DNA from: Candidatus Omnitrophota bacterium
Lineage (GTDB): Bacteria; Omnitrophota; Gorgyraeia; Tantalellales; Tantalellaceae
DNA length: 64,000 nt
NCBI GenBank assembly: GCA_041667545.1
Contig: JBAYES010000001.1
Span: forward strand, 5,928-69,927
Direction of reading: 5' to 3'
Both the position numbers and the translations under genes were made by a program. The notes under the pieces are model-generated. The model worked only from the letters and a program-made list of their open reading frames with translations. It did no database searches and had not been told where the DNA came from. Of this stretch, positions 16,678 to 33,031 are shown piece by piece. Position 1 is the stretch's first letter, and each line of letters starts with the position of its first letter.

Positions 16678-19404
16678 ATGAAAAGGTTTTACGTTTTAGG
16701 GAAACCGGGAAAATTATGCGCGGTCTTTTTGTGCCTCTGTCTTGTCGCGGGCGGCGCTTTGCCTTCGGAAGCTTTCTGGCCCGGGGCAGATACCGGGTCC
16801 GATCCGGAATTTTCCAGACAACAAAAAAGAAATATGGAGATACAAAAAATATTGGATAAAGCCAGGGACGAGCGGGGAGTGAATAATTACAAAAGAGCGA
16901 GATCTTTCGGGGAAAGAGCTTTGAGGCTTGACCCGGACAACTATGCCGTTAAAGCGTTTTTGGGGCATTTAGACATTGCCGAAGAAAGATGGGAAAAATA
17001 TCAGTCTGACCTGAAAGAGCTTAAGATAAGGCAGAAAGAAGAGGCAAAAGCCCAAAAAGAGGCTGAAAAAGAGCTAAAAAGAGAGGAAGTTTCCCAAAAA
17101 CGAGCTGAAGAGGAAGCGGCTAAATTGGAAGAGCGAAAGGAAGATGTTCCGGTTAAACAAGTTATGGCGGAAGAAAAGCCCGCGGTTGATATGCCTGATG
17201 TAGATAGAGTCTCTGAAGATGCCGAAAGTATTCCGGGAGAAAAGGAGATCTTTCCCAAAAGAGAAGATCCCGAGATGGATCTTTTAGCGAAGTCGGGCCA
17301 TTCCATAGTGGTAGACGGGGATAGAGTGGAATATCTACAGGAAGAAGGACGCATAACGGCGGAAGGCAATGTTTCAATACAGTATGGCGATGTGGTGCTT
17401 AACTGTGACAAGATATCCATAGACACTAATTCGAGAATAGCGCTCTGTGAAGGCAATGTCCGCATAGTGCACCCCAAAGGGGTATTGGAAGGCGATCTCA
17501 TTCGTTATGACCTGGCAAATAAGGAAGGAGAGATAGTCGGGGCGGATCTTAAAGCATTTCCGTGGTTTGCCACAGCGGATGAGACGGGCAAGGTCGGGCC
17601 CAATGAATATGTGCTTAAGAACGGGTACATAACAACATGCGACGAAGATGAACCGCATTATCACCTTAAAGCCCAGGAAATACGTGTTTTCCCGAACGAT
17701 AAGATCATAGCAAAAAATGTTATCTACTACATAGGCAAGATCCCTGTTTTGTGGGTGCCTTATTATTATCAGCCCAACATAGAGTTAAAGACAAAGGTAC
17801 AACTGATCCCGGGCAGTACAAGCGATTGGGGCTATTTTCTTCTCTCCGCATGGCGGTTTCATATAAAGGGGAACACTAAAGTTGATATACTTTCCGATTA
17901 CCGGACCAAAAAAGGTTTCGCTTTCGGCGCCAATCTTTACTATGATCTCGACGATACCGGCATAGAGGGGTTAGGTAAAGGCCTTTTAAGGGGATACTTT
18001 ATAGATCAGAATGGTTTTGGCACGTATGAACCATCTGAATTTAGGGATGAAGGAACGCAGCAGAGATGGAGAAGGCGTATCCAGTGGAAACATCGTTTGA
18101 ATTTCGACGAAGAGACCACTGGTATAGTGGAATTCAATAAACTGAGTGACGAGCATGTTCTCAAAGAATATTTTTACAACGAGTACGAGGAGAATAACCC
18201 CGTTCCCCCCAACTACATATCCATTATAAACACAAAACCGAATTATTCCTTCAGCCTTGAGGCCCACAAAAGGTTCAACGATTTTTATACGGTGACGCAG
18301 CGTCTTCCCGAAGTAAAACTTGATGTTTTCGAGCAGAGGTTGTGGGATACGCCTCTGTACTACGGTTCAACTTCTTCCGCTACCTACTTCGAGAAAGAAT
18401 ACGCTTATCTTTCATCGCCGTCCGAGAAAGTGGGCAGAGCCGATACCTATCAGAAACTTGCCTATGCCACAGGTATAGGCCCTTTGAGCATTGTGCCTTA
18501 CGGTACACTTCAGGGAACGGCATATAGCCGGACAAAAAATCAAAGTCAGGCCGCTGTACGGGGTACCTTCGGCGGGGGGGTAGACACTTTTATCAGGTTT
18601 AGCCGTGTGTTCGACATTAAGACAGATTATCTGGGACTTGATATAAACGAGTTAAGGCATATAGTCGCTCCCAGGGCTCAATATTATTACACTTACAGAC
18701 CCAGCATGAGCAGGGGACATTTTTACCAGATGGACGAAATAGACGCCCTGGAACATCTTAACGGTATAGCGTTCTCATTAGAGAATAAACTGCAGACCAA
18801 GAGAGGGATGCCGGGAGAAATGGCTTCGGTGGATCTTATAAGGAGCATAATACGAACGGATTATTCTTTCAGAGAGAAAGAAGGCGGGCCCCGGTTCAAA
18901 ATGCTTCATTCCGACCTTGAAGTCAGGCCTTATAGCTGGTTGTATTTCGATAATAGGCTTGAGATAGAGACAGAGAATTTTTCCGTAAAGACAAATAGTG
19001 TTGAGGCCGTCCTTCAGCCCTGGTGGAATTTTCAGGCGGCTTTGGGATACCGCTACGAGAAAAGGATGGATGATTCAAGGAATCAGCTGACATTCGATAC
19101 GAATTGGGTTATAAACCCGAAGTGGAGCGTAGGATTATACGAACGGTTCGATCTTGAGAAAAGTGATATTGAAGAACAGCAGCTTACGATCACAAGGGAT
19201 CTTCACTGCTGGGCGGTAGATGTAGTTTACAACGTCAAGGGAAAAGATATCTTTGAAGACGATTTTACATTCTGGTTCGCTTTCAGGCTTAAAGCTTTCC
19301 CGGACCTTCCGATAGGCCTTTCGAGATCATATAACAAAACTCCTCCGGGGGCGTTATCTTCGTATCCCAGGCCCTCATTAACGCCGGAGCCGTATAAGCC
19401 ATAG
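16678..19404 (+). CDS. lptD: LPS-assembly outer-membrane protein LptD/OstA homolog with an unusual charged coiled-coil N-terminal insertion
   Basis: Signal-peptide-like N-terminus, an OstA_N-like beta-jellyroll segment (VVDGDRVEY...GNVSIQYGDVVLNCDKISIDTNS...GNVRI) and a large C-terminal beta-barrel region rich in Y/F/W/G. Start taken at ATG 16678, which follows GGAAGG. Confidence 0.7.
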   Translation: MKRFYVLGKPGKLCAVFLCLCLVAGGALPSEAFWPGADTGSDPEFSRQQKRNMEIQKILDKARDERGVNNYKRARSFGERALRLDPDNYAVKAFLGHLDIAEERWEKYQSDLKELKIRQKEEAKAQKEAEKELKREEVSQKRAEEEAAKLEERKEDVPVKQVMAEEKPAVDMPDVDRVSEDAESIPGEKEIFPKREDPEMDLLAKSGHSIVVDGDRVEYLQEEGRITAEGNVSIQYGDVVLNCDKISIDTNSRIALCEGNVRIVHPKGVLEGDLIRYDLANKEGEIVGADLKAFPWFATADETGKVGPNEYVLKNGYITTCDEDEPHYHLKAQEIRVFPNDKIIAKNVIYYIGKIPVLWVPYYYQPNIELKTKVQLIPGSTSDWGYFLLSAWRFHIKGNTKVDILSDYRTKKGFAFGANLYYDLDDTGIEGLGKGLLRGYFIDQNGFGTYEPSEFRDEGTQQRWRRRIQWKHRLNFDEETTGIVEFNKLSDEHVLKEYFYNEYEENNPVPPNYISIINTKPNYSFSLEAHKRFNDFYTVTQRLPEVKLDVFEQRLWDTPLYYGSTSSATYFEKEYAYLSSPSEKVGRADTYQKLAYATGIGPLSIVPYGTLQGTAYSRTKNQSQAAVRGTFGGGVDTFIRFSRVFDIKTDYLGLDINELRHIVAPRAQYYYTYRPSMSRGHFYQMDEIDALEHLNGIAFSLENKLQTKRGMPGEMASVDLIRSIIRTDYSFREKEGGPRFKMLHSDLEVRPYSWLYFDNRLEIETENFSVKTNSVEAVLQPWWNFQAALGYRYEKRMDDSRNQLTFDTNWVINPKWSVGLYERFDLEKSDIEEQQLTITRDLHCWAVDVVYNVKGKDIFEDDFTFWFAFRLKAFPDLPIGLSRSYNKTPPGALSSYPRPSLTPEPYKP

Positions 19405-19428
19405 TCCTTAGACCATAGTCCATAGTTT
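19398..19428. repeat. CCATAGTCC short direct repeats, first of four occurrences
   Basis: ccatagtccttagaccatagtccatagtttgg. Related copies at 20762-20797, 22392-22418 (inverted) and 24536-24572. Confidence 0.8.
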
Positions 19429-19454
19429 GGAGGAGGGGGAGGACAGGAGACAAA

Positions 19455-20759
19455 ATGAAAATAACTATAGTAGGAAGCGGGTATGTGGGGCTGGTAACAG
19501 GCACATGTTTTTCCGATCTCGGGAATGAGGTTATTTGCGCCGACAGCGACAGCGCGAAGATAGGCCTTTTGAAAAAAGGCGGGGTGCCCATATACGAGCC
19601 CGGGCTTGAAGAACTTATAAAGAAGAACGTTAAAAGCGGCAGATTAAGTTTTACCACCGATATCAAAAAAGCCGTTTCCGGATCGGAAGTGGTTTTTATC
19701 TGTGTGGGGACACCTCCTAAAGATGACGGCAGCGCCGATCTCAGCGGAGTGGAGAAAGTATCCAAGGATATTGCCGAACATTTTGACTCGTACAAACTTA
19801 TTGTGGAAAAAAGCACCGTTCCGGTGGAAACGGGAGAATGGGTGAGGCGCACTATAGCTAAGTTCAATAAGAGCGGCAGTGAGTTTGAGATAGCTTCCAA
19901 CCCCGAGTTTTTAAGGGAAGGCTCGGCTATAAAAGACTTTATGAACCCTGACAGAGTAGTTATAGGCGTGGAATCGGAGAGGGGAGAGAAGATACTTCGC
20001 GATATTTACGAACCCTTGAACACTAAAATAGTGGTTACTAATATCAAAGGCGCAGAGATAATAAAACACGCGGCAAATTCGTTCCTGGCCGTGAAAATAT
20101 CCTTTATAAACGCCTTGAGCAATATATGCGAGAAAACCGGGGCCGATGTAGAGCAGGTGGCCGAGGGCATAGGGCTTGATTCTCGAGTTAACAAGCATTT
20201 TTTAAGAGCGGGCATAGGTTTTGGCGGATCGTGTTTTCCTAAAGATCTTAAAGCTTTCATACATATATGCGAAAAACTGAGCTATGATTTCGGAATGTTG
20301 AAAGAGGTCGAAAAAATCAACGAAAGACAAAAGGAACTTGCCGTTGAAAAGATACGCAAAATGCTGTGGAATATGTCGGGAAAAGTGATAGCGGTATGGG
20401 GACTGGCTTTTAAGCCCGACACCGACGATATTCGGTCCGCCCCGGCCATAGACATAATAAACCGTCTTCTATCGGAAGGCGCCCGCATAAGGGCTTACGA
20501 TCCCGTAGCAATGGATAATTCCAGGAAGCTGTTCGCCGATTCCCCTAACATAGAGTTCTCTCGGGATATCTACGATGCCGCGAGATCAGCGGACTGTATA
20601 GTTCTTATGACCGAATGGAACGATTTCAAGGAAGTAGACTGGAACAGAATAAAGAAAGAAATGGCGCAGACGTTTATACTTGACGGACGCAATATTTACG
20701 ACCCTGAAAAAATGAGGGATCTGGGCTTTACGTACGAGGGAATAGGGCGGGGGGTGTAA
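19455..20759 (+). CDS. ugd: UDP-glucose 6-dehydrogenase
   Basis: N-terminal Rossmann MKITIVGSGYVGL and the catalytic GGSCFPKD motif. The protein is 434 aa. Confidence 0.85.
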   Translation: MKITIVGSGYVGLVTGTCFSDLGNEVICADSDSAKIGLLKKGGVPIYEPGLEELIKKNVKSGRLSFTTDIKKAVSGSEVVFICVGTPPKDDGSADLSGVEKVSKDIAEHFDSYKLIVEKSTVPVETGEWVRRTIAKFNKSGSEFEIASNPEFLREGSAIKDFMNPDRVVIGVESERGEKILRDIYEPLNTKIVVTNIKGAEIIKHAANSFLAVKISFINALSNICEKTGADVEQVAEGIGLDSRVNKHFLRAGIGFGGSCFPKDLKAFIHICEKLSYDFGMLKEVEKINERQKELAVEKIRKMLWNMSGKVIAVWGLAFKPDTDDIRSAPAIDIINRLLSEGARIRAYDPVAMDNSRKLFADSPNIEFSRDIYDAARSADCIVLMTEWNDFKEVDWNRIKKEMAQTFILDGRNIYDPEKMRDLGFTYEGIGRGV

Positions 20760-20761
20760 GT

Positions 20762-20797
20762 CCATAGTCAATAGTCCATGGTCCATGGTCGATAGAA
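20762..20797. repeat. CCATRGTC short repeats, second occurrence
   Basis: tccatagtcaatagtccatggtccatggtcgatag. Confidence 0.8.
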
Positions 20798-20803
20798 GGT
20801 CTT

Positions 20804-20846
20804 GTGCCGGGTTCACAAAAGCAGGTTCCCATTACGAACCTGGCAC
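20804..20846 (+). promoter_or_regulatory. conserved 42-nt upstream element, copy 1 of 3 (GTGCCRGGTTCACAAAAGCRGGTTCCCATTACGAACCTGGCA)
   Basis: Near-identical copies at 24588-24628 and 26017-26058, each 29-77 nt upstream of a start codon. It contains an outer inverted repeat GTGCCRGGTTC/GAACCTGGCAC and an inner one CAGGTTC/GAACCTG. Confidence 0.75.
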
Positions 20847-20874
20847 AGAAAAACTGTAAAAAAAGGAAACAAAC

Positions 20875-21603
20875 ATGATAGAAGGCGTAAAAGTAAAACA
20901 GCTGAAACTCATCCCGGACGATCGCGGCAGGCTTATGGAAATACTGCGGAAAGACGATGACTTGTTTGCGGAATTCGGACAGGTGTATATGACAACGGCC
21001 TTTCCGGGAGTTGTAAAGGCCTGGCATTTCCACAAAAAGCAAACTGACAATTTTACCTGTATAAGGGGGTGTATGCGTCTCGGTCTGTATGACTCCCGTA
21101 AAACCTCGTCTACATACGGCAAAGTCGAAGAATTCATAATAAGCCTTGATAGCCCGATGCTTGTTCAGATACCACCTGAAGTTTATCACGGGTTCAAGTG
21201 CATAAGCGAGGAAGAAGCTGTAGTAATAAACACGGTAACCGTACCATACGATAAGAACGATCCGGACGAATACAGAGTAGACGCGTTTGAAAATGATATC
21301 CCTTTCGACTGGAACGCCGTCATTGCGAGGCCCGCAGGGCAGAGCAACCCAAAAAACGAGTCGACTGAAACGCCGTCATTGCGAGGCCCGCAGGGCCGAA
21401 GCAACCCAAAAAACGAGTCGACCGAAACGCCGTCATTGCGAGGCCCGCAGGACCGAAGCAACCCAAGGAACGAGTCGACCGAAACGCCGTCATTGCGAGG
21501 CCCGCAGGGCCGAAGCAACCCAAAAAACGAGTCGACCGAAACGCCGTCATTGCGAGGCCCGCAGGGCCGAAGCAACCCAAAAAAACGAGGTAACCTGACA
21601 TGA
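20875..21603 (+). CDS. rfbC: dTDP-4-dehydrorhamnose 3,5-epimerase RmlC with an in-frame tandem-repeat C-terminal extension
   Basis: RmlC cupin core through ...DPDEYRVDAFENDIPFDW. No stop codon follows, and the frame stays open through 5 x 57-bp repeats (NESTETPSLRGPQGRSNPK). It ends at a TGA overlapping the rfbA ATG. Confidence 0.75.
   Translation: MIEGVKVKQLKLIPDDRGRLMEILRKDDDLFAEFGQVYMTTAFPGVVKAWHFHKKQTDNFTCIRGCMRLGLYDSRKTSSTYGKVEEFIISLDSPMLVQIPPEVYHGFKCISEEEAVVINTVTVPYDKNDPDEYRVDAFENDIPFDWNAVIARPAGQSNPKNESTETPSLRGPQGRSNPKNESTETPSLRGPQDRSNPRNESTETPSLRGPQGRSNPKNESTETPSLRGPQGRSNPKKRGNLT
21311..21594 (+). repeat. tandem repeat array A: five copies, unit 57 bp with a 56-bp first copy (GAAACGCCGTCATTGCGAGGCCCGCAGGGCCGAAGCAACCCAAAAAACGAGTCGACC)
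   Basis: Copy starts at 21311, 21367, 21424, 21481 and 21538, identical apart from a few substitutions. The array lies between the rfbC domain end and the rfbA start. Confidence 0.95.
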
Positions 21604-22340
21604 AAGGCATAGTACTCGCGGGGGGGCTCGGAAGCCGTCTTTTTCCTCTCACCAAAATAACCAATAAACATCTTCTTCCGGTTTACGACAAACCCATGAT
21701 CTATTATCCCATAATGACGCTTGTCGACGCTGGCATAACCGAGATAATGGTGGTTACAGGAGGAAACCATGCCGGAAATTTCCTCCGGCTTCTGGGCAAC
21801 GGGACCGAATTCGGCCTTAAAGGAATAAATTACGCTTATCAGGAAAATGAAGGCGGCATAGCCGAAGCCCTCGGACTTGCCGAATACTTTGCCGACAATG
21901 ATAAATGTGTCGTGATCCTGGGAGATAATATTATAGAAAAAAGCATAAAAAAAGAAGTTGAGGAATTTTCCGCGCAGAAAGAAGGCGCGCGTATAATGAT
22001 AAAAGAATCTTCTCACCCGGAAAGATTCGGCGTTGTGGAGTTCGAAGACAACAAAATAAAACGGATAATAGAAAAACCCAAAAACCCGCCCACAAATTAC
22101 ATAGTTACGGGAGTCTATATGTATGACGGCAAGGTTTTCGACTTTATAAAAGGTCTCGATCCCTCCGGCAGAGGGGAACTTGAAATAACGGATGTCAACA
22201 ACATGTATATAGAAAAAGGCCAGATGGAATACTCTATGCTTGACGGCTGGTGGACCGACGCGGGTACGTTTACCTCTCTTCTCAGGGCAAGCAACCTTGT
22301 CGCGGGAAAGGATGCCTCCAAAAACCAAAGCGCGTCATAA
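21600..22340 (+). CDS. rfbA: glucose-1-phosphate thymidylyltransferase RmlA
   Basis: N-terminal MKGIVLAGGLGSRLFPLT nucleotidyltransferase motif. Length and order fit the rml operon. Confidence 0.9.
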   Translation: MKGIVLAGGLGSRLFPLTKITNKHLLPVYDKPMIYYPIMTLVDAGITEIMVVTGGNHAGNFLRLLGNGTEFGLKGINYAYQENEGGIAEALGLAEYFADNDKCVVILGDNIIEKSIKKEVEEFSAQKEGARIMIKESSHPERFGVVEFEDNKIKRIIEKPKNPPTNYIVTGVYMYDGKVFDFIKGLDPSGRGELEITDVNNMYIEKGQMEYSMLDGWWTDAGTFTSLLRASNLVAGKDASKNQSAS

Positions 22341-22391
22341 TATAACTAGATGCAAGCAACCGGGTGCAAGTTCTACCGGCCACCTACCATG

Positions 22392-22418
22392 GACTAATGA
22401 CTATGGACTACACAACGA
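22392..22418. repeat. CCATRGTC repeat, inverted orientation
   Basis: ccatggactaatgactatggactac, the reverse complement of GTAGTCCATAGTCATTAGTCCATGG. Confidence 0.7.
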
Positions 22419-22428
22419 GAGGCGACAT

Positions 22429-23406
22429 ATGAGGCTGCTAATTACGGGAGGCGCGGGGTTCATCGGCTCCAACTTCATACGTCTTACACTTGATAGATAC
22501 AAGGATATAAGGGTAACCAATCTCGATAAACTTACCTATTGCGGCAATTCGGCCAATCTTGAGGACATATCGAAAGATCCGAGATATTCTTTCGTAAAAG
22601 GTGATATCTGCGATAAGGGCCTTATGGAAGATCTCATCTCAGACTCCGACATTATTATCAATTTTGCCGCCGAGACCCATGTGGACAGGTCAATAAAATA
22701 TCCGGATGACTTTATTGTTACCAATATTTACGGTACAAAAACCCTTCTTGAGGCCGCCCGTAAGAGCGGCATCTCAAAATTCATACAGATAGGGACAGAT
22801 GAGGTCTATGGGAGCGTGCCGGAAGGCCTTTCCGCGGAAAGGGATACTTTAAGGCCCAATAGCCCTTATTCGGCGACAAAAGCTTCGGCCGACCTTTTGG
22901 CTCTTTCTTACTACACGACTTACGGCCTTCCCGTAATAGTTACAAGAAGCTCCAATAATTTCGGGCCGTACCAATTCCCGGAAAAAGTGATACCGCTTTT
23001 TATAACCAATCTTATAGACGGGCGTAAGGTCCCGCTTTACGGGGACGGCGGCAATATCAGGGACTGGATATTCGTCGGCGACAATTGCGAGGGCATAGAC
23101 GTTATAATGCGTAAGGGCAAACCCGGAGAGATCTATAATATCGGCGGAGGCAATCATCTTTCCAACAAGGAACTTACCTATGCGATACTGTCGGCGATGG
23201 GGAAGGGGGAGGACTCTATAGAGTATGTAAAAGACAGGCCCGGCCATGACAGGAGATATGCTCTTGACTCTTCTAAGGCGGGGAAACTTGGATGGACCGC
23301 GTCTTCAGATCTTAACGGAGACATCCAAAGGACCATAAAGTGGTACAAAGATAATGAGTCCTGGTGGCGTGAACTGAAAAAGAAAGCCGAAATAATCACC
23401 TGGTAG
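22429..23406 (+). CDS. rfbB: dTDP-glucose 4,6-dehydratase RmlB
   Basis: MRLLITGGAGFIGSNF Rossmann start and the YSATKAS catalytic motif. The 6-frame ORF extends upstream to 22240, but the conserved N-terminus begins at ATG 22429. Confidence 0.9.
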   Translation: MRLLITGGAGFIGSNFIRLTLDRYKDIRVTNLDKLTYCGNSANLEDISKDPRYSFVKGDICDKGLMEDLISDSDIIINFAAETHVDRSIKYPDDFIVTNIYGTKTLLEAARKSGISKFIQIGTDEVYGSVPEGLSAERDTLRPNSPYSATKASADLLALSYYTTYGLPVIVTRSSNNFGPYQFPEKVIPLFITNLIDGRKVPLYGDGGNIRDWIFVGDNCEGIDVIMRKGKPGEIYNIGGGNHLSNKELTYAILSAMGKGEDSIEYVKDRPGHDRRYALDSSKAGKLGWTASSDLNGDIQRTIKWYKDNESWWRELKKKAEIITW

Positions 23407-23436
23407 CGTAAAAGATCTTCAGGGAACATAAGTTTT

Positions 23437-24342
23437 ATGAAAATACTTATAACAGGGTCCGGCGGGATGCTGGGGCGGGAACTTCGCGGCGTTCTTTCAA
23501 AGGGAGAAAATGAAATAGCCGGGTTGGACATTGCTTTGACGGATATGGCGAAGCCCGAACCGGGAGTTTTTTATAATGTTAACATAAACGATGCCGAAGA
23601 GATCAAGAAGGTCTTTGAAAAAGAAAAACCGGATATAGTTATTCATACAGCGGCCTGGACAGATGTGGACGGCTCTGAGAAAGATCCCGAAAAGGCGCGT
23701 AAGATAAATGTCGAGGGGACTGTTAATGTAGCCGAATCGGCTCGGAAACATTCCGCTGACCTCTTATATATCAGTACGGATTTTGTTTTTGACGGCGGGA
23801 AAAACGCTCCGTATACGGAACTTGACGAGTGTGCTCCCCTAAGTGTTTACGCTAAGACGAAATGGGAAGGAGAGAACAAGGTCAGAGGATCTCTGGAAAA
23901 TTATGCCATAGTAAGAACAAGCTGGCTTTTCGGCCCCGGGGGAAAGAACTTCGTTAAAGCCATAGTATCAAGATCTAAAGACCACAAAACGATACAGGTA
24001 GTGAACGATCAGACGGGTTCTCCGACATACACAAAGGATCTGGCCGATAGCGTAAAGAAACTTCTTGAGAAGGGGATAAAAGGCGGGGAAATATACCATG
24101 TATGTAATTCAGGCCAATGTTCCTGGTATGAGTTCGCCCTTAAGATAAAAGATCTTGTGCCCGAGATGAAAGATGTAAATATTGTACCCTTGTCTTCCGT
24201 CGAACTTGGCCGCTCGGCCCCAAGGCCCGCGTATTCCGTAATGAACACAAGCAAGTTCCGGGAACATACTGGCATGAGTCTAAGGAATTGGCAAGAAGCG
24301 CTGGAAGAGTACCTATGCGAAGAGGGAAGGGCAAAGAGGTAA
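23437..24342 (+). CDS. rfbD: dTDP-4-dehydrorhamnose reductase RmlD
   Basis: MKILITGSGGMLG N-terminus and RmlD-like length. The stop TAA is embedded in GGTAAGGGG. Confidence 0.85.
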   Translation: MKILITGSGGMLGRELRGVLSKGENEIAGLDIALTDMAKPEPGVFYNVNINDAEEIKKVFEKEKPDIVIHTAAWTDVDGSEKDPEKARKINVEGTVNVAESARKHSADLLYISTDFVFDGGKNAPYTELDECAPLSVYAKTKWEGENKVRGSLENYAIVRTSWLFGPGGKNFVKAIVSRSKDHKTIQVVNDQTGSPTYTKDLADSVKKLLEKGIKGGEIYHVCNSGQCSWYEFALKIKDLVPEMKDVNIVPLSSVELGRSAPRPAYSVMNTSKFREHTGMSLRNWQEALEEYLCEEGRAKR

Positions 24343-24372
24343 GGGGTAAGGGCGAAGAGGGAAGGGCAGAGA
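24320..24372 (+). repeat. purine-rich GGTAAGGGG/CGAAGAGGG tract overlapping the rfbD stop codon
   Basis: gaagagggaagggcaaagaggtaaggggtaagggcgaagagggaagggcagag. Similar tracts at 2625-2690, 27034-27060, 29953-30062 and 32866-32925. Confidence 0.85.
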
Positions 24373-24465
24373 GCGAAGGGTTATGCGGAATAGCGTTTTT
24401 CACGTCGTTGCGAGGGAGCGAAGGGTTATGCGGAATAGCGTTTTTCACGTCGTTGCGAGGGAGCG
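24373..24465 (+). repeat. tandem repeat array B: two copies of a 45-bp unit ending in CGTCGTTGCGAGGGAG
   Basis: Unit gcgaagggttatgcggaatagcgtttttcacgtcgttgcgagggag starts at 24373 and 24418. It is followed by GCGACCGAAGCAATCTAATAAAATAAAAATAAG. Confidence 0.9.
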
Positions 24466-24503
24466 AAGCGACCGAAGCAATCTAATAAAATAAAAATAAG
24501 AAG
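24447..24503 (+). promoter_or_regulatory. conserved terminal element CGTCGTTGCGAGG...CCGAAGCAATCTAATAAAATAAAAATAAG, copy 1 of 3
   Basis: The CCGAAGCAATYTAATAAAATAAAAATAA tail recurs almost exactly at 30106-30141 and 32957-32992. Confidence 0.7.
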
Positions 24504-24535
24504 TCGGAGAGCAAAGAGGTAAGAGGAAAGGGTAG

Positions 24536-24572
24536 TCCATAGACCATAGTCGATAGTCCATGGTTTGGGAAC
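24536..24572. repeat. CCATRGTC short repeats, fourth occurrence
   Basis: ggtagtccatagaccatagtcgatagtccatggtttgg. Confidence 0.8.
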
Positions 24573-24587
24573 ATGACTCCGGGTCTC

Positions 24588-24628
24588 GTGCCAGGTTCAC
24601 AAAAGCGGGTTCCCATTACGAACCTGGC
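24588..24628 (+). promoter_or_regulatory. conserved 42-nt upstream element, copy 2
   Basis: gtgccaggttcacaaaagcgggttcccattacgaacctggc, about 70 nt upstream of the 24699 start. Confidence 0.75.
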
Positions 24629-24698
24629 GAAGGGCGGAACGCCCCCGCCGTCATCCTGAGGAGCCGAAGGCGACGAAGGATCCCAAAAAAGGAAAACA

Positions 24699-26012
24699 AT
24701 GAACACACATGCAGCATTAAAACAAAAGATCAAGAATAAAACCGCCACTGTGGGTGTCATCGGCCTCGGTTATGTCGGCCTTCCCATGGCCGTGCAGTTC
24801 GCCCGAAAAGGATTTGACGTTCGAGGTATAGACTTAAGCGCAAAACGTATAGCCAGATTGAAAAAAGGCGTTTCCTACATTGGCGACATATCGGACGCGG
24901 CGATAAAAGAAGCCCTCACATCCAAAAAATTCACCGTAACATCGGACGCTAAGCACTTAAAAAAATGCGATGTTGTTATAGTCTGCGTACCCACTCCCAT
25001 AAATAAGGCCCTGAAACCCGATATCTCATACATACTCTCAGCCGCGAAAGTAATGAAAGAGAATATCCGGCCCGGCCAGCTTTTTGTGCTTGAAAGTACA
25101 ACATACCCCGGAACTACGCGGGAGGTTCTTTTGCCCATACTTTCCGGAAAGAAACTTACGGCGGGCAACGATTTTTTTCTTGCCTTTTCTCCCGAAAGAA
25201 TAGATCCGGGTAATCCAAAATATGATTTTTCCAATATACCCAAGCTTGTCGGCGGTATTACCGGTAAATGCACGGAACTTGCCAAACTTCTTTACCGGCA
25301 AGTCACTGAAAAGGTAATAGGCCTTTCTTCTCCCGAGACGGCGGAGGTAACCAAACTGCTTGAAAACTCATTCCGGATAGTTAATATCGGACTCATAAAC
25401 GAATTCGCGAATTTATGCCACAAACTAGACATAGACGTATGGGAAGTTATTGAAGCGGCAAAAACAAAACCCTTCGGTTACATGCCTTTTTATCCCGGCC
25501 CGGGAGTGGGCGGGCACTGCATACCTGCCGATCCCATGTACCTTTCATGGAAAGCCAGGAAGGTGGGTTTTGAGACAAGGATGATAGACCTTGCCGCTAA
25601 AGTCAACATAAACGCTCCACGTCATATAGTGGAAAGGATAAGCGCAATTCTAAAAAAATACGGGAAAAAGATAAAAAACTCTAAAATACTTATCCTGGGA
25701 GCGGCATATAAAAAAAATATAAACGATCTCAGGGAGTCGCCCGCGCTGGATGTAATGAAGGCGCTGGACAATAAAAAGGCGAAATGGGCGTATAGTGACG
25801 CGTATATCCCGTATTTGGACATACATGGTCTTAAGTCCAAAAGCGTTAAACTTTCACCAAACCTTGTCAAAAAACAGGATCTTGTCGTGATACTAACAGA
25901 CCACAGCAATGTAGATTACAAAATGGTAGCCAAGAACTCGAAAAGGATCTTTGATACACGTAATATAACAGGCAGATCAGGAATAAAAGGGGACAATATC
26001 GTCAAGTTATGA
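24699..26012 (+). CDS. nucleotide-sugar dehydrogenase of the UDP-GlcNAc/UDP-ManNAc 6-dehydrogenase type (WbpA/WecC/TviB-like)
   Basis: N-terminal VGVIGLGYVGLP Rossmann motif and catalytic GGHCIP. The 437-aa length is typical of the TviB/WecC clade. Confidence 0.85.
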   Translation: MNTHAALKQKIKNKTATVGVIGLGYVGLPMAVQFARKGFDVRGIDLSAKRIARLKKGVSYIGDISDAAIKEALTSKKFTVTSDAKHLKKCDVVIVCVPTPINKALKPDISYILSAAKVMKENIRPGQLFVLESTTYPGTTREVLLPILSGKKLTAGNDFFLAFSPERIDPGNPKYDFSNIPKLVGGITGKCTELAKLLYRQVTEKVIGLSSPETAEVTKLLENSFRIVNIGLINEFANLCHKLDIDVWEVIEAAKTKPFGYMPFYPGPGVGGHCIPADPMYLSWKARKVGFETRMIDLAAKVNINAPRHIVERISAILKKYGKKIKNSKILILGAAYKKNINDLRESPALDVMKALDNKKAKWAYSDAYIPYLDIHGLKSKSVKLSPNLVKKQDLVVILTDHSNVDYKMVAKNSKRIFDTRNITGRSGIKGDNIVKL

Positions 26013-26016
26013 TCTT

Positions 26017-26058
26017 GTGCCGGGTTAACAAAAGCAGGTTCTCATTACGAACCTGGCA
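26017..26058 (+). promoter_or_regulatory. conserved 42-nt upstream element, copy 3
   Basis: gtgccgggttaacaaaagcaggttctcattacgaacctggca, starting 5 nt after the upstream stop and about 45 nt before the 26104 start. Confidence 0.75.
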
Positions 26059-26103
26059 TAAAAAAGCGCAACTTCTCTCGCGGTCAAAAAAAAGGAGTCA
26101 CAC

Positions 26104-27036
26104 ATGTCTAAATACCTTGTAACAGGCGGAGCCGGATTTATAGGGTCTAACATTGTAGAAGAACTCGTTTCCCGGGGAGAAATCGTACGCGTTCTGGACA
26201 ATCTTTCAACCGGCTTCGAAGAGCATATCGCTCCTTTCATGGACAAGATAGAGTTCCAAAAAGGCGACATCAGAAAAGAGGAAGATGTGAAGAAGGCTGT
26301 TTCGGGAATGGATTACGTTATTCATCAGGCGGCTTTAAGAAGCGTAGCTAAAAGCGTAGAGGCCCCGGTGCCGACCAATGACGTCAATGTATGGGGAACT
26401 CTTAACATGCTTCTTATCTCCGTAGAAAATAAAATAAAAAGGTTTGTTTACGCTTCTTCGAGTTCGGCTTACGGCGACTGTGATGTTTTTCCCGAGCATG
26501 AGGGGCTTTGTCCCAACCCGATATCTCCATACGCGGTGAGCAAACTTGCCGGAGAGCATTATGCCAGGATGTTTACTCACACAATGGGCCTGGAAACCGT
26601 AAGCCTGCGTTATTTCAACGTATTCGGACCGCGTCAGAATCCGGAATCTAAGTATTCGGCGGTAATTCCGGCATTTATTGACAGGCTTGTAAAGAATGAA
26701 CCGTGCATTATAGACGGAACAGGGGAACAGTCCAGGGATTTTACTTATGTAAAGAACGTCGTCGACGCAAATATAGCTTCATGTCATGCAAAAGGCGTTT
26801 CCGGAATGGTTTTCAACGTAGCGTGCGGAGAAAGTTATTCTGTGAACGAAACGGCAAGATCCATCGCCAAAATTCTGGGTAAGAATATTTCCCCAGTATA
26901 CGGCCCGAAAAGAAAGGGAGATGTACTAAAAACCTATGCCGACATAACGGCGCTGAAAGAGAAACTGGGAGTCACTCCGGAAGTAGGCTTTTACGAAGGC
27001 CTGGAAAAAACAGTTAAGTGGTTCGTAGAGAAGTAA
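26104..27036 (+). CDS. NAD-dependent nucleotide-sugar 4-epimerase (WbpP/TviC-like)
   Basis: YLVTGGAGFIGSN Rossmann motif and catalytic YAVSKLA (YxxxK). Pairs with the upstream TviB-like dehydrogenase. Confidence 0.8.
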   Translation: MSKYLVTGGAGFIGSNIVEELVSRGEIVRVLDNLSTGFEEHIAPFMDKIEFQKGDIRKEEDVKKAVSGMDYVIHQAALRSVAKSVEAPVPTNDVNVWGTLNMLLISVENKIKRFVYASSSSAYGDCDVFPEHEGLCPNPISPYAVSKLAGEHYARMFTHTMGLETVSLRYFNVFGPRQNPESKYSAVIPAFIDRLVKNEPCIIDGTGEQSRDFTYVKNVVDANIASCHAKGVSGMVFNVACGESYSVNETARSIAKILGKNISPVYGPKRKGDVLKTYADITALKEKLGVTPEVGFYEGLEKTVKWFVEK

Positions 27037-27069
27037 GGGTGAGGGCAAAGAGGTAAGGGGCACAAAGCC

Positions 27070-27366
27070 CCGTCATTGCGAGGAATGAACGAAGTGAGTG
27101 ACGAACCAAACGCGTCTTCTCCGTCATTGCGAGGAACGAACGAAGTGAGTGACGAACCAAACGCGTCTTCTCCGTCATTGCGAGGAACGAACGAAGTGAG
27201 TGACGAACCAAACGCGTTTTCTCCGTCATTGCGAGGAACGAACGAAGTGAGTGACGAACCAAACGCGTTTTCTCCGTCATTGCGAGGAACGAACGAAGTG
27301 AGTGACGAATCAAACGCGTTTTCTCCGTCATTGCGAGGAACGAACGAAGTGAGTGACGAAGCAAAC
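27070..27366 (+). repeat. tandem repeat array C: about 5.8 copies of a 51-bp unit CCGTCATTGCGAGGAACGAACGAAGTGAGTGACGAACCAAACGCGTCTTCT
   Basis: Copy starts at 27070, 27121, 27172, 27223, 27274 and 27325. The last copy ends ...GACGAAGCAAACTAAATAAACATG at the carbamoyltransferase start. Confidence 0.95.
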
Positions 27367-27375
27367 TAAATAAAC

Positions 27376-29205
27376 ATGAAAAACAACAAAACCTACATAT
27401 TAGGAATATCCGCTTACTATCACGACGCGGCAGCGGTTCTCCTGGAAGACGGCAATATTATCGCAGCCGCCCAGGAAGAGCGGTTCACCCGCAAAAAGCA
27501 CGACCCGTCATTTCCTCTGAAGGCGGTTGAATATTGTCTTACCGGTGCCGATATCAAAATAGAAGACGTTGACATTGTGGCTTTCTACGATAAACCCTTT
27601 CTCAAATTCGAAAGGCTTCTCGAAACTTATGTGGCCTACGCGCCTTTCGGCATAAGATCTTTCATACAGGCCATGCCTCCCTGGGTAAAACAGAAACTCT
27701 TCATGAAAGAGCATATAAAAAGCGAACTCGGATACAAGGGTAGAATAATATTCCCCGAACATCACCATTCCCACGCTTCAAGCGCGTTCTACCCCTCGCC
27801 TTTCGAGGAAGCGGCCATACTTACGGTTGACGGTGTGGGAGAATGGGCCACGGCAAGCATAGCAAAAGGCAGCGGCAGCAAGCTGGAACTTTTAAAAGAG
27901 ATAAAGTTCCCGCATTCCCTGGGGCTTCTTTATTCGGCGTTCACTTACTATTGCGGGTTCAGGGTAAATTCCGGAGAGTATAAACTTATGGGGCTTGCCC
28001 CCTATGGCGAACCTAAATACGCGGAACTCATAACGGACAAACTTATTGACATTAAGGATGACGGATCGTTCAAGCTTGATCTCAGATATTTTAACTATTG
28101 TACAGGCCTTACCATGACGAACAGGAAATTCCATTCTCTTTTCGGCGGCCCGCCAAGAAAGAAAGAAGGCGCGCTTCTTCAAAAACATATGGATATAGCC
28201 CGTTCCATACAGGATGTGACCGAAACAGTTATCATGAAGATGGCAAAATATACCCGCAACCTTACAGACTGCCGCGATCTTTGCATGGCGGGAGGCGTAG
28301 CCCTGAACTGTGTGGCGAACGGCAAGATGGTTCGGGAAGGACTTTTTGACAATATATGGATACAGCCGGCTTCATCCGATGCCGGAGGCGCCCTCGGCGC
28401 GGCTTTGGCAGCATGGCATGAGTGTATGGGCCGGGAAAGGCCGGTAGATCATGGGCGTGACTCGCAAAAGGCAAGTTTACTCGGACCGGAGTTTTCCGAC
28501 AGTGAGATAGAGGGCTATCTCATCAAGGAAAAGATTCCTTATAACAAGGTCCCTCCGGAAGAGATCTCAAAACGAACGGCTGATCTTATAGCTTCGGAGA
28601 ATGTTATCGGCTGGTTTCAGGGAAGAATGGAATTCGGGCCGAGAGCCCTTGGCGCCAGAAGTATTCTGGGAGACCCGAGATCCGAGAAAATGCAGTCTTT
28701 AATAAACCGAAAGATAAAATTCAGGGAATCCTTCAGGCCGTTCGCGCCCAGTATTCTACTTGAATCCGCGAAAGAATATTTCAGCATGGAAGGTGAAAGT
28801 CCGTACATGCTTATGGTGTTCCCGGTATCCGAAAATAAAAGAGTGAAAAATACTTCAGGAGAAGAACTATTTGGAATAAACAAACTCAAGGAAAAACGCT
28901 CGCTTGTCCCGGCCATAACCCATGTAGATAACTCCGCGAGAGTCCAGACAGTTAAACAGGAGGATAATCCGGCATATTACGATCTTATAAATGAGTTCAA
29001 GGTGAGGCACAACTGTCCACTTGTCATAAACACATCTTTTAACGTCAGGGGAGAACCCATAGTCTGCACACCGGCAGACGCCTACAGATGTTTTATGCGT
29101 ACCAATATGGATTATCTTGTAATGGGTAATTTTATTATCGACAAAAAAGATCAGGATCCTTCAAGAATAAAGCTTGAAGAAGTCAATAATTTTGAATTAG
29201 ACTGA
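27376..29205 (+). CDS. carbamoyltransferase (NodU/CmcH/SxtI family)
   Basis: N-terminal ILGISAYYHDAAAVLL, the HHHSHASSAF metal motif and a C-terminal YrdC-like domain. The protein is 609 aa. Confidence 0.85.
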   Translation: MKNNKTYILGISAYYHDAAAVLLEDGNIIAAAQEERFTRKKHDPSFPLKAVEYCLTGADIKIEDVDIVAFYDKPFLKFERLLETYVAYAPFGIRSFIQAMPPWVKQKLFMKEHIKSELGYKGRIIFPEHHHSHASSAFYPSPFEEAAILTVDGVGEWATASIAKGSGSKLELLKEIKFPHSLGLLYSAFTYYCGFRVNSGEYKLMGLAPYGEPKYAELITDKLIDIKDDGSFKLDLRYFNYCTGLTMTNRKFHSLFGGPPRKKEGALLQKHMDIARSIQDVTETVIMKMAKYTRNLTDCRDLCMAGGVALNCVANGKMVREGLFDNIWIQPASSDAGGALGAALAAWHECMGRERPVDHGRDSQKASLLGPEFSDSEIEGYLIKEKIPYNKVPPEEISKRTADLIASENVIGWFQGRMEFGPRALGARSILGDPRSEKMQSLINRKIKFRESFRPFAPSILLESAKEYFSMEGESPYMLMVFPVSENKRVKNTSGEELFGINKLKEKRSLVPAITHVDNSARVQTVKQEDNPAYYDLINEFKVRHNCPLVINTSFNVRGEPIVCTPADAYRCFMRTNMDYLVMGNFIIDKKDQDPSRIKLEEVNNFELD

Positions 29206-29221
29206 CCAGTGGCGGGAGAAT

Positions 29222-29626
29222 ATGGAAGAGAAGAAGATACAAAAAAAAGATCTGAGAGAGTTTGGAATGGTGCTGTCTCTCATTCTGGCTCTTTTCGCGT
29301 TCATCCATTTCCGAAAAGGGCATTTTGATCTTACTAAATGGTTATCCATGTTCTCTGGCATGTCGGTTTTGTTCGCGATACTGGTGCCCGCGGCCTTAAT
29401 ACCGGCTTTTAAAGTTTTCACAAAAATAGCCCATGCTCTCGGCTGGTTCAACACAAGGCTTATCTTAGCCTTCGTTTACTATCTTATAGTAACCCCGATA
29501 GGTATAGTTTTCCGTATTTTCGGGAAAGATCTTTTGTCTTTAAAATTAGACAAGAACAAACCAAGCTACTGGCTTGACCATCATTCGGGAGGCGTCACGG
29601 CAGAGTCCCTGGAAAAACAGTTTTAG
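29222..29626 (+). CDS. SxtJ-like small membrane protein
   Basis: 134-aa protein with about 3 TM helices immediately downstream of the carbamoyltransferase. The ...REFGMVLSLILALF segment resembles SxtJ-family proteins. Confidence 0.45.
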   Translation: MEEKKIQKKDLREFGMVLSLILALFAFIHFRKGHFDLTKWLSMFSGMSVLFAILVPAALIPAFKVFTKIAHALGWFNTRLILAFVYYLIVTPIGIVFRIFGKDLLSLKLDKNKPSYWLDHHSGGVTAESLEKQF

Positions 29627-29639
29627 GGTCCGAAAAAGC

Positions 29640-29760
29640 GCAAAAAAGAGGAGCTCCTCGCTGTCATTCGCTATGAGGTCGCGGGGTTTGTGGAAAGGAT
29701 CCTGTTTCCTTGGTCATTACGAGGAGCCCTGTACCGGAGCGAAGCGACTATTACAATGCG
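29640..29760 (+). repeat. degenerate single copy of the CGTCATTGCGAGG...CGACGAAGCAA element
   Basis: gtcattacgaggagccctgtaccggagcgaagcgactattacaatgcgacgaagcaaacc, preceded by gctgtcattcgctatgagg. Confidence 0.6.
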
Positions 29761-29793
29761 ACGAAGCAAACCCCAAACAAAAGGATTGAACAT

Positions 29794-29952
29794 ATGGGAA
29801 AAATGGGGATAATGAGAGAATTATGGGACTTCATGAGAGTCCGGAAAAAGTGGTGGCTTCTGCCCATAATAATAATGCTGCTTCTTCTGGGGCTTTTGTT
29901 AATATTCACCCAGTCCTCAGCAGTAGCCCCGTTCATATACACGTTGTTTTGA
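29794..29952 (+). CDS. SxtK-like/DUF5989-like small membrane protein
   Basis: MGKMGIMRELWDFMRVRKKWWLLPIIIMLLLLGLLLIFTQSSAVAPFIYTLF. The RKKWWL...APFIYTLF pattern matches small proteins found after carbamoyltransferase genes. I prefer this internal ATG over the ORF start at 29710. Confidence 0.5.
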   Translation: MGKMGIMRELWDFMRVRKKWWLLPIIIMLLLLGLLLIFTQSSAVAPFIYTLF

Positions 29953-30062
29953 GCAAAGAGGTAAGGGGTAAGAGGCAAGGGGCAAGAGGTAAGGGCAGGG
30001 GGCGAAGGGCGGAGAGCAAAGGGCAAAGAGCGAAGGGCAAAGAGCGAAGGGCGGAGATCGGA
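29953..30062 (+). repeat. purine-rich (GGTAAGGGG/CAAGAGG/CGAAGGG)n tract
   Basis: gtaaggggtaagaggcaaggggcaagaggtaagggcagggggcgaagggcggagagcaaagggcaaagagcgaagggcaaagagcgaagggcggag. It contains four or more GGG/GGGG runs. Confidence 0.85.
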
Positions 30063-30076
30063 AGGATCGCAAAGCC

Positions 30077-30141
30077 CCGTCTTTGCGAGGTCCCCGGAAC
30101 GGGGGCCGAAGCAATCTAATAAAATAAAAATAAAACAAGTC
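30077..30141 (+). promoter_or_regulatory. structured element CCGTCTTTGCGAGG-[CCCCGGAACGGGG hairpin]-CCGAAGCAATCTAATAAAATAAAAATAAAACAAGTC
   Basis: A near-identical element at 32927-32992 has its hairpin changed to CCTCCGGAACGGAGG, which is compensatory covariation. It lies about 25 nt upstream of the UXS start. Confidence 0.7.
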
Positions 30142-30164
30142 TCGGTGTAAAAAAAAGGACAATC

Positions 30165-31106
30165 ATGCGTATACTACTAACCGGCGGAGCCGGATTTCTC
30201 GGGTCACATCTGTCTGAACGCCTTCTAAAAGAGGGACATAAAGTTGTCTGTATGGACAACCTTATAACCGGCAGAACGGAGAATATATCTCACCTTATCT
30301 CTAATGAGGACTTTGAATTCATCAAACATGATGTCTCAAAATTCATTATTGTTGACGAGAAACTGGATTATGTTTTTCATTTTGCATCTCCCGCAAGCCC
30401 CGAAGACTATCTCAATCACCCGATAAAAACCCTTAAAGTGGGTTCTCTGGGGACACATAACGCTCTTGGCGTGGCAAAAGAGCATGAAGCAAAATTCCTT
30501 CTCGCGTCCACTTCCGAGGTTTACGGAGACCCTCTTGTAAACCCCCAGCCGGAAACTTACTGGGGCAACGTAAACCCCATAGGGCCGCGCGGAGTTTATG
30601 ACGAAGCAAAGAGATTCGCGGAAGCTATAACGCTTGCTTATCACAGGGTTCACGGTGTAGATACTAAAATAGCCCGTATCTTCAATACTTACGGGGAAAG
30701 AATGCGCCATCATGACGGCCGGGTAGTACCGAATTTCATAGATCAGGCATTGAAGGGAGAACCACTTACAGTTTACGGTGACGGGACACAGACGAGAAGT
30801 TTTTGCTACGTGTCAGACCTTATTGAGGGGATATTCCGCCTTATGAATTCAGATCTTAACGAGCCGGTAAACATCGGAAACCCCATAGAGCTGAGCGTTC
30901 TTGAATTTGCGGAAAAAATAAAAGAAATATCCGGAGCTGATTGTGAAATAGTCTTCAAGCCGCTCCCGGTCAACGACCCAAAAGTAAGAAGGCCGGACAT
31001 AACCAAAGCAAAAAAAGAACTCGGCTGGGAACCCGAGATTAATTTAGAGCAAGGATTAAAGAGAACTATAGAATGGGCCAAGAGAGAAGCAAAAACGACT
31101 CAGTAG
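30165..31106 (+). CDS. UDP-glucuronate decarboxylase (UDP-xylose synthase)
   Basis: [16 protein letters not shown] start, YDEAKR catalytic motif and 313-aa length fit UXS. The upstream ugd supplies UDP-GlcA. Confidence 0.8.
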
Positions 31107-31115
31107 AATAATGCT

Positions 31116-31367
31116 TCCGTCATTGCGAGGAGTGGACGAAAAGAGTATTCCTCCGTCGTTGCGAGGAGCGAACGAAGAGAGTATTTCTCCGTCGTTGCGA
31201 GGAGCGAACGAAGAGAGTATTCCTCCGTCGTTGCGAGGAGCGAACGAAAAGAGTATTCCTCCGTCGTTGCGAGGAGCGAACGAAAAGAGTATTCCTCCGT
31301 CGTTGCGAGGAGCGAACGAAGAGAGTATTTCTCCGTCGTTGCGAGGAGCGAACGAAGAGAGCGACGA
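31116..31367 (+). repeat. tandem repeat array D: seven copies of a 36-bp unit TCCGTCGTTGCGAGGAGCGAACGAAGAGAGTATTYC
   Basis: Copy starts at 31116, 31152, 31188, 31224, 31260, 31296 and 31332. Ends ...GAGCGACGAAGCAATCTCAAAAAATCAAGGAGCAATATG at the gmd start. Confidence 0.95.
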
Positions 31368-31394
31368 AGCAATCTCAAAAAATCAAGGAGCAAT

Positions 31395-32375: not shown

Positions 32376-32398
32376 GGGCTAAGGGCGAAGAGCAATCT

Positions 32399-32925: not shown

Positions 32926-32926
32926 T

Positions 32927-33031
32927 CTCGTCGTTGCGAGGCCTCCGGAACGGAGGCCGAAGCAATTTAATAAAATAAAAATAAAACAAGTCCCGGGATT
33001 GCTTCGGTCGCTCCGCTTCCTCGCAACGACG
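32927..33031 (+). promoter_or_regulatory. inverted pair of CGTCGTTGCGAGG...CCGAAGCAAT elements flanking a conserved A-rich core
   Basis: Forward copy at 32927-32992 with a CCTCCGGAACGGAGG hairpin. An inverted partial copy ATTGCTTCGGTCGCTCCGCTTCCTCGCAACGACGG at 32997-33031 gives a roughly 100-nt imperfect palindrome. Confidence 0.7.

Follow-up and report, generated by a model that had tools for sequence, protein, structure and literature searches.

The open reading frame (ORF) at 20875..21603 on the + strand of a 64,000-nucleotide stretch of a Candidatus Omnitrophota bacterium (contig JBAYES010000001.1; hereafter the window) is given in the ORF list as 242 amino acids (aa): an RmlC-family cupin followed by a stop-free run across a tandem array, array A. 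We think it likely that this tail arose when rmlC acquired a repetitive extragenic palindromic (REP) hairpin at its 3' end, which was then amplified in place, that the frame stayed open through the accident of composition and small indels, and that the array is probably translated into a disordered appendage that is tolerated. The tail is thus most likely a by-product and not a functional protein domain. A sequence-only reading of the same DNA had offered two interpretations, a genuine low-complexity tail or a translated spacer coupling rmlC to rfbA; it had missed that the repeat unit is a dispersed intergenic hairpin element.

The gene and its boundary with rfbA are laid out as follows.

20875..21315, + strand: RmlC-family cupin domain (PF00908), 147 codons, ending ...IPFDWN
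21316..21603, + strand: ORF extension through the array, 94 codons plus the TGA that overlaps the rfbA ATG
21587..21603, + strand: junction comprising GAGG, TAA at 21591, TGA at 21596 and ATGA, the same in a related contig, L001
21600..22340, + strand: rfbA/rmlA-like nucleotidyltransferase gene (PF00483, E=1e-60)

In the Pfam comparison PF00908 (dTDP-sugar isomerase) spanned residues 2-150 with 56.7 bits against a cutoff of 27, and the best PDB match of the cupin was 3ejk, a "dTDP sugar isomerase". The NCBIfam rmlC equivalog TIGR01221 reached 35.5 bits, far under its cutoff of 155.75; the protein can therefore be assigned to the family, but not identified as RmlC. We call it an "RmlC-family cupin" for caution, and its epimerase activity is putative. 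As the sequence-only reading had stated, no stop codon separates the domain from the array: the first in-frame stop after ...IPFDW is the TGA at 21601-21603, within the ATGA at 21600-21603. The Shine-Dalgarno-like GAGG at 21587-21590, 9 nucleotides (nt) 5' of the ATG, is rfbA's own, and the TAA at 21591 and the TGA at 21596 serve the other two frames, so that all three + frames close within 21591-21603, no more than 13 nt from the rfbA ATG.

Tandem Repeats Finder resolved array A as 5.0 copies of a 57-bp unit at 21305-21589 with 95% matches, and the copies are spaced by 56, 57, 57 and 57 nt. The array had been thought to begin right after the domain, at about 21315; its start in fact lies 11 nt inside the conserved domain, and the unit opens with TCGACTGGAAC, which encodes (F)DWN. 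The five copies, all on the + strand, are these.

21305..21360, + strand: copy 1, 56 nt; starts with authentic coding sequence from the 3' end of rmlC, TCGACTGGAAC
21361..21417, + strand: copy 2, 57 nt; its duplicate of the TGG has become TGA (21366-21368)
21418..21474, + strand: copy 3, 57 nt; a variant with GGACC and CCCAAGGAAC
21475..21531, + strand: copy 4, 57 nt; equal to the consensus
21532..21589, + strand: copy 5; A7 run at 21579-21585 where L001 has A6, otherwise equal to the single copy in L001

The rmlC-derived start of the unit decays along the array, from TCGACTGGAAC in copy 1 to TCGACTGAAAC in copy 2 and TCGACCGAAAC in copies 3-5. Because the unit carries the last 11 nt of rmlC itself, the array grew by tandem duplication in place, from a single copy like that of L001.

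The shorter first copy and the switch of frame that the sequence-only reading had described are both present: the 3' box of copy 1 is degenerate, and a 1-nt deletion with an adjacent substitution (CGAAG to AGAG) shifts the frame. That reading had also held that both frames remain open. This is true of the consensus unit, whose 19 codons contain no stop in any of the three frames, but frame 0 is closed in copy 2 by the TGA at 21366-21368, which is out of frame solely through the deletion in copy 1. With copy 1 intact, translation would stop there and leave a tail of about 17 aa; full read-through is therefore due to a single 1-nt deletion. Among composition-matched shuffled units a given frame was open in 67%, so an open run of about 95 codons is no evidence of coding. 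Similarly, there are five copies at the DNA level, but the peptide NESTETPSLRGPQGRSNPK, thought to occur five times, is present only four times (once as the variant PQDRSNPR), and copy 1 reads NAVIARPAGQSNPK.

The unit of array A recurs outside the gene. It contains CGTCATTGCGAGG, a motif found 24 times in the window (23 times on the + strand) when one mismatch was tolerated, where chance predicts 0.15 occurrences; CGTCRTTGCGAGG gives this same count of 24 against 0.15, so the repeat family, unlike the open frame, goes far beyond chance. All motif copies fall within 21.3-33.0 kb, and a generalised 5' box is found 25 times in 12 kb, 24 times co-oriented with the genes. The 20 copies outside array A are all intergenic, each placed after one gene's stop codon and ahead of the next gene's start. 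Four arrays of this hairpin family, array A included, are packed into 10 kb, and the members outside array A are as follows.

24371..24482, + strand: intergenic array of the array A family, 45 bp x 2.2; 3' box CGAAGCAATC in the last unit only
24649..24682, + strand: sister-type element CGTCATCCTGAGG...CGAAGGATC, whose lower stem covaries as ATCCT/AGGAT
27070..27366, + strand: intergenic array of the array A family, 51 bp x 5.8
30078..30116, + strand: single intergenic element, upper stem GGUCCCCG/CGGGGGCC; fold -20.5 kcal/mol
31116..31374, + strand: intergenic array of the array A family, 36 bp x 6.8; 3' box in the last unit only
32929..33031: inverted element pair, 32929-32966 on the + strand and 33031-32997 on the - strand; the sole inverted pair in the window

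The element is built from a CGTC tag, a lower stem ATTGC/GCAAT, an asymmetric purine internal loop GA/GAA, a variable G+C upper stem and a triloop. All five units of array A and other copies in the window start with CGTC(A/G)T; the units of array A and L001 end in GCAAC, with the result that the outermost A-T pair is gone. One hairpin of array A represents the others.

21379..21404, + strand: hairpin core TTGC-GA-GGCCC-GCA-GGGCC-GAA-GCAA, with its CGTC tag at 21374; fold -14 kcal/mol

The equivalent cores in array A start at 21323, 21436, 21493 and 21550. In RNA folding the predicted structure forms with three different upper stems (GGCCC/GGGCC, GGUCCCCG/CGGGGGCC and GGCCUCCG/CGGAGGCC), and the lower stem covaries as ATTGC/GCAAT, ATCGC/GCGAT and ATCCT/AGGAT. 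Among 108 distinct variable inserts from the loci that we fetched, 31% have at least five terminal pairs, compared with 0.7% of shuffles, and 67 carry a GNA triloop. GNA loops also close the d(GCGNAGC) DNA mini-hairpins, which are very stable, and this hints that the element may adopt a single-stranded DNA form. On these features we place the element as a variant member in the superfamily of CGTC-tagged REPs (Di Nocera, De Gregorio & Rocco 2013, BMC Genomics 14:522; PMC3733652).

Other identities were considered for the hairpin and rejected. It does not behave as an intrinsic terminator: the hairpins precede CCCAAAAAAC or AATAAAATAAA with no T run, and a terminator scan gave no + strand site in 21300-21600. 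The placement between genes in one orientation prompted a comparison with integron attC sites; on inspection the R''/R' consensus (RYYYAAC...GTTRRRY) is absent, and the genes belong to a syntenic rml/ugd operon that is kept in relatives. Hammerhead and kink-turn readings of the GA/GAA loop did not fit the consensus cores on inspection. Rfam gave no match at E<=1 in 19000-35000, and in seven related loci it gave just chance miRNA-precursor matches far below the gathering score.

The hairpin is widely distributed. An exact 26-mer of the array A hairpin occurs in more than 120 metagenome contigs with G+C of 0.40-0.73, frequently as inverted doublets, and inverted doublets of the element are common at soil and alphaproteobacterial loci. 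An exact 30-mer occurs in 93 stretches of species-representative genomes, which include Alpha-, Beta- and Gammaproteobacteria (among them cultured Novosphingobium), Gemmatimonadota, Acidobacteriota, Chloroflexota, Planctomycetota, Bdellovibrionota, Omnitrophota and other groups. We do not read the exact 30-mer in many phyla simply as recent horizontal transfer, since conserved boxes combined with a short GNA-closed G+C stem can recur independently. In the literature the element's sequence strings returned primer coincidences alone, and our search there found nothing on tandem repeats in Omnitrophota.

Tandem arrays have a common construction. Those made of a spacer and the 5' half of the element are present in many phyla, and in most arrays (24371-24482, 31116-31374, L001:1937-2135, L144, L172, L132, L154 and others) the unit consists of the upstream spacer plus the hairpin 5' half (CGTC..GCGAGG..), with the 3' box CGAAGCAATC confined to the last unit. 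The presence of the 3' box in the last unit only suggests directional duplication anchored at the element. Unit lengths in the five arrays of this lineage (21305-21589, 27070-27366, 24371-24468 and 31116-31361 in the window, and L001:1937-2116) are all multiples of three (57, 51, 45 and 36 bp, and 30 bp in L001), for which the chance is about 0.4%. The rule that periods are multiples of three, and hence that arrays are translated, is not general: periods in other phyla are 17, 25, 26, 29, 31, 35, 43, 50 and 58. Arrays also come and go between relatives; 5' of rmlC, L001 carries a 30-bp x 6 array (1937-2116) and the window has none, and the element arrays are labile.

Whether related proteins stop at the end of the domain, a comparison that the sequence-only reading had proposed, was examined in the best 120 protein matches, which are Omnitrophota RmlC-family proteins of about 148 aa and 72-87% identity. 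The tail was missing from 119 of these 120 orthologues, which end at the domain and cover just 60-63% of the query. Nearly all of the C-termini that we read consist of ...FDW plus 2-3 aa (11 aa in P0046), and the extra length of the few longer orthologues is an N-terminal extension. At five syntenic loci (L215, L216, L219, L220 and L221), rmlC has its own TAA or TAG 2-3 codons past FDW, and the 18-117 nt between this stop and rmlA form an untranslated spacer; the spacer of L215 holds a sister-type element with the lower stem ATCCT/AGGAT.

The exception is P0001, encoded on L001 with 86% aa identity, which ends ...FDWSAVIARPAGPKQPKKRGNLT*. Here a single copy of the element sits at the same position, there is again no stop, and the ORF ends at the same ATGA overlap. 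Because L001 is an independent contig and is also stop-less, the missing stop is not a one-off sequencing slip, which makes translation of the tail probable. Between the window and L001 the rmlC domain shares 85.7% of its nucleotides, and 51 of the differences fall at third codon positions. Across the element and the junction, by comparison, 56 nt show zero substitutions and one indel in an A run; at the average divergence of the gene, zero substitutions in 56 nt would have a chance of about 2e-4. The tail of L001, AVIARPAGPKQPKKRGNLT, and that of window copies 2-5, TPSLRGPQGRSNPK, are read from identical nucleotides in different frames, and therefore it is the DNA that is conserved and not the protein.

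The tail was also examined as a protein. AlphaFold2 (29 aligned sequences) returned a predicted local distance difference test score (pLDDT) of 85-97 for residues 1-150, whereas residues 156-242 stayed below 50 and showed no secondary structure. When the tail alone served as query, no homologue was found at E<=1 among 5.8 billion sequences. The tail is thus predicted to be disordered. The genuine low-complexity tail of the sequence-only reading is hard to reconcile with its absence from nearly all orthologues, the different frame in L001, the lack of a homologue in that search and the low pLDDT.

We propose the following history. In the common ancestor with L001, the element would have come to abut rmlC right after ...FDW(N/S), and the gene's stop would have been lost. 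In the lineage of the window, a 57-bp segment made of the last 11 nt of rmlC, the element and an A-rich trailer was then duplicated in tandem, in place, to five copies. Since the unit is 19 codons long and stop-free in any frame, the ORF runs on, and the deletion in copy 1 would let it reach the TGA on the rfbA start codon. Ribosomes very probably translate the array into what would be a disordered and functionless C-terminal appendage. Selection, if there is any, would act on the nucleotide hairpin and not on the peptide; the hairpin might affect mRNA stability or segmental decay in the operon, as has been proposed for other REPs, or it might alternatively persist as a selfish or neutral repeat.

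Several observations sit uneasily with this history. In both lineages the open frame runs on until precisely the ATGA overlap, which the window reaches through two offsetting indels (-1 in copy 1 and +1 in the last A run); this could hint at selection for coupling. The five array periods divisible by three go unexplained if none of the arrays was ever translated. The perfect conservation of element and junction could be the product of recent recombination across this tract instead of constraint, as identity is also 96% over the first 93 nt of rfbA. In its two-tier stem and head-to-tail arrays the element departs from the CGTC families described in PMC3733652. Finally, we infer the translation, stability and neutrality of the tail, and likewise any role at the RNA level.

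The first of these observations bears on the translated spacer, in which the frame is kept open to let ribosomes that have read rmlC unfold all five hairpins and end translation at the rfbA start, thereby setting the rfbA:rmlC expression ratio. We consider this stop/start coupling possible as the sequence-only reading had it, and unlikely. The ATGA overlap and the entire junction are identical in the window and L001, the TGA is reached in the window only via two offsetting indels, and the hairpins lie immediately 5' of the rfbA ribosome-binding site, all of which would fit. However, no selection on the frame is needed to place the stop, as every frame meets a stop 13 nt or less from the ATG. 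In addition, rfbA is served by a GAGG of its own, which lies 11 nt past the end of the last hairpin and is therefore not sequestered. The five orthologous loci also work with an ordinary stop and the 18-117 nt untranslated spacer. A fold of the whole array as RNA produced pairings between units and says nothing on the rfbA ribosome-binding site.

It is improbable, to a slightly greater degree, that the tail results from an assembly or sequencing artefact in which the copy number or the two indels are wrong, and an intact copy 1 leads to the stop at TGA 21366, with about 17 aa of tail and no translation of the array. Short-read metagenome assemblies are prone to errors in tandem repeats such as this one (57-bp units, 285 bp in all), an A6/A7 homopolymer holds one of the two indels, and read-through hangs on one 1-nt deletion; the exact 242-aa product has no record in the collection of public assemblies. 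On the other side, L001 confirms the stop loss independently, copy 1 combines its deletion with a neighbouring substitution, a pattern atypical of homopolymer error, and the copies differ mutually at several positions, as real diverged copies would. The remaining alternative, a functional C-terminal domain in which an S/T/P/E-rich repetitive tail is selected, for example as a linker, glycosylation substrate or localisation signal, is very hard to credit: the ORF is open, the unit is 19 codons long and L001 is extended too, but that extension uses a different frame of the same nucleotides, the tail is predicted to be disordered and lacks a homologue in the 5.8 billion proteins searched, 119/120 orthologues do without it, and its unit is an intergenic repeat elsewhere in the window.

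The REP-derived origin that we favour has consequences for annotation. Gene callers will give a 242-aa "RmlC" with a repetitive tail, which should be flagged as REP-derived, and spurious ORFs on both strands of such arrays are a hazard. On the minus strand, spurious ORFs run through the arrays at 21186-22328, 21320-21664 and 27014-27364 in the window and at L001:1913-2104; the last of these (63 aa) is called as a gene in the public record. The ugd orthologue at L216:2454-3854 is called at 466 aa, compared with 434-441 aa in the window and at other loci.

The kind of event is already known, namely a REP-type palindrome fused in frame to the end of a gene, and in the present case the duplication history is unusually clear. 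It would be a clean and datable example of a palindrome that erases a stop codon and then expands in place, adding 94 residues to an enzyme in the window lineage and 18 in its sister. Such additions may be raw material for new C-termini, as has been argued for the palindromic elements of Rickettsia.

The arrays and their hairpins also led to a candidate enzyme. When ORFs with elements on both sides were sought in the fetched loci, we recovered recurrent proteins of about 95 aa that are stand-alone GIY-YIG nucleases (Pfam PF01541). In these loci, which had been selected by the element, 8 of 11 GIY-YIG ORFs had hairpins within 200 bp, usually on both sides. As an independent test, the GIY-YIG protein was itself searched and five contexts were fetched without selection by the element. 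All five genes were bracketed by inverted CGTC/TGTC hairpins with their tags outward, and two of the loci are insertions, one between sufB and sufC and the other between hsdR and hsdM. Thirteen of 22 boxes lay 300 bp or less from a GIY-YIG gene, a zone that makes up 15.5% of the sequence (binomial P=4e-6). Most GIY-YIG homologues come from contigs near 1 kb in length, which is what multi-copy DNA would give. The loci are listed below.

L222:2750-3700: GIY-YIG gene bracketed by inverted hairpins
L228:2500-3450: GIY-YIG gene bracketed by inverted hairpins
L229:2940-3340: GIY-YIG gene bracketed by inverted hairpins
L230:2960-3370: GIY-YIG gene bracketed by inverted hairpins
L231:2700-3340: GIY-YIG gene bracketed by inverted hairpins
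L006, L040, L050, L071, L155, L157, L158 and L174: further loci of this kind

CGTC REPs were described as elements that "apparently lack a dedicated transposase" (PMC3733652), and the literature reports no RAYT association for them. We tentatively suggest that they may have a cognate enzyme after all, the stand-alone GIY-YIG nuclease of about 95 aa, whose gene is bracketed by inverted hairpins like a RAYT "REPtron". The 5'-half arrays, the near-identical boxes across phyla and captures at ORF ends such as the RmlC tail would then be footprints of GIY-YIG cut-and-repair. It could instead be that the GIY-YIG gene homes into REP clusters or is trapped by them. There is no GIY-YIG gene inside the 64-kb window, and our literature search, of limited scope, found no paper linking CGTC REPs and GIY-YIG. 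If the suggestion is true, GIY-YIG is a candidate for the enzyme that CGTC repeats were reported without; the association is a lead and not a demonstration, and it is the part of this work most worth following.

The cupin gene opens an rmlC-rmlA-rmlB-rmlD block, 3' of lptD and ugd, within a larger sugar-nucleotide cluster (lptD-ugd-rmlC-rmlA-rmlB-rmlD-ugd2-epimerase-carbamoyltransferase...gmd...aminotransferase). Other repeats are present in the window. G-rich heptad tracts (TAAGGGG/CAAGAGG/CGAAGGG) begin at or just before the stops of many genes, at the following positions.

24319-24378: G-rich heptad tract
27034-27066: G-rich heptad tract
29950-30053: G-rich heptad tract
32859-32909: G-rich heptad tract
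2602-2683: G-rich heptad tract

The TAA of the heptad is often the gene's stop, and the 7-nt period puts a TAA in all three frames; the last seven codons of rmlD (EEGRAKR) and its stop derive from such a tract. A second heptad repeat of the TAGTCCA type (gtccatagtcaatagtccatggtccatggtcgatag) is intergenic, at 20760-20795 and 24533-24565 and inverted at 22378-22405, and supplies the stop triplet TAG every 7 nt. A conserved hairpin, GTGCCrGGTTCACaaaagCrGGTTCCCATTACGAACCTGGC, occurs at 20803-20850, 24587-24630 and about 26030-26060, which is 25-70 nt upstream of rmlC, ugd2 and the epimerase gene at 26104. A terminator scan flagged it as terminator-like on the minus strand, and it may be an element of the 5' untranslated region or associated with a promoter. 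The 115-aa ORF at 32524-32871 has no Pfam or NCBIfam match, and its stop lies within a G-rich heptad tract; it is flanked by CGTC elements, at 32402 upstream and at 32929 (+) and 33031 (-) downstream.

Among known systems the element is closest to the CGTC REPs (PMC3733652). Those repeats have an unpaired terminal CGTC, with TGTC and CCTC variants allowed, stems of 8-9 bp that start with A-T and then T-A, loops of 4-5 nt (other loop lengths occur in Bradyrhizobium CGTC-1) and short CCA-like tails. They are high-copy, mostly extragenic and downstream of ORFs, sometimes within genes, including their COOH termini, and head-to-head dimers predominate. They occur in several phyla, mainly in Alphaproteobacteria and also in Planctomycetes, and include Rickettsia RPE-4 (CGTC-4) and RPE-6 (CGTC-1) and Neisseria dRS3. 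Our element resembles them in its CGTC tag (TGTC at other loci), in the A-T/T-A start of its stem, in a short tail, which reads ATCCA in many of the copies found in other phyla, in its location mostly downstream of ORFs in same-direction operons, in its spread over many phyla, in the precedent for intragenic copies, and in clusters of units reiterated in tandem with flanking DNA. It differs from the published families in its stem, where 5 bp are followed by the GA/GAA loop, a further 2-8 bp and mostly a GNA triloop, and in its arrangement, which is as singles or head-to-tail arrays on one strand, with one inverted pair, and not as head-to-head dimers. Omnitrophota were not among the groups of that survey, and the present data extend CGTC-type REPs to this phylum and document the two-tier GNA-triloop hairpin and the head-to-tail 5'-half arrays.

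The Rickettsia palindromic elements are small palindromes that lie in frame within genes and are translated and apparently tolerated, as is probably the case for the RmlC tail. The classic elements are about 150 bp long, internal and found in many genes (PMC10969869); by contrast, the present one is at the extreme 3' end, replaces the stop and is amplified in tandem, and the likeness is one of description.

The canonical REP/REPIN-RAYT system is marked by the 5' tetranucleotide GT(A/G)G (PMC3116915, PMC3337134, PMC3686654). It shares with our element short, high-copy, extragenic palindromes, inverted doublets (here in other phyla) and one small nuclease gene bracketed by inverted repeats, which here is GIY-YIG instead of RAYT. 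Whereas REPIN sequences are lineage-specific, the boxes of our element are near-identical across phyla, and canonical REP/RAYT identity was rejected on the head of the element, which is (C)GTC(A/G) instead of GT(A/G)G.

Liang, Rudd and Deutscher (2015, Mol Cell) reportedly found that REPs near stop codons in E. coli stall ribosomes and lower the expression of the upstream gene. As in those stop-adjacent REPs, a stable hairpin at the end of a coding region could affect termination and the protein yield of the upstream gene. Unlike the E. coli REPs, which lie just after the stop, the five hairpins of array A lie before it, inside the ORF.

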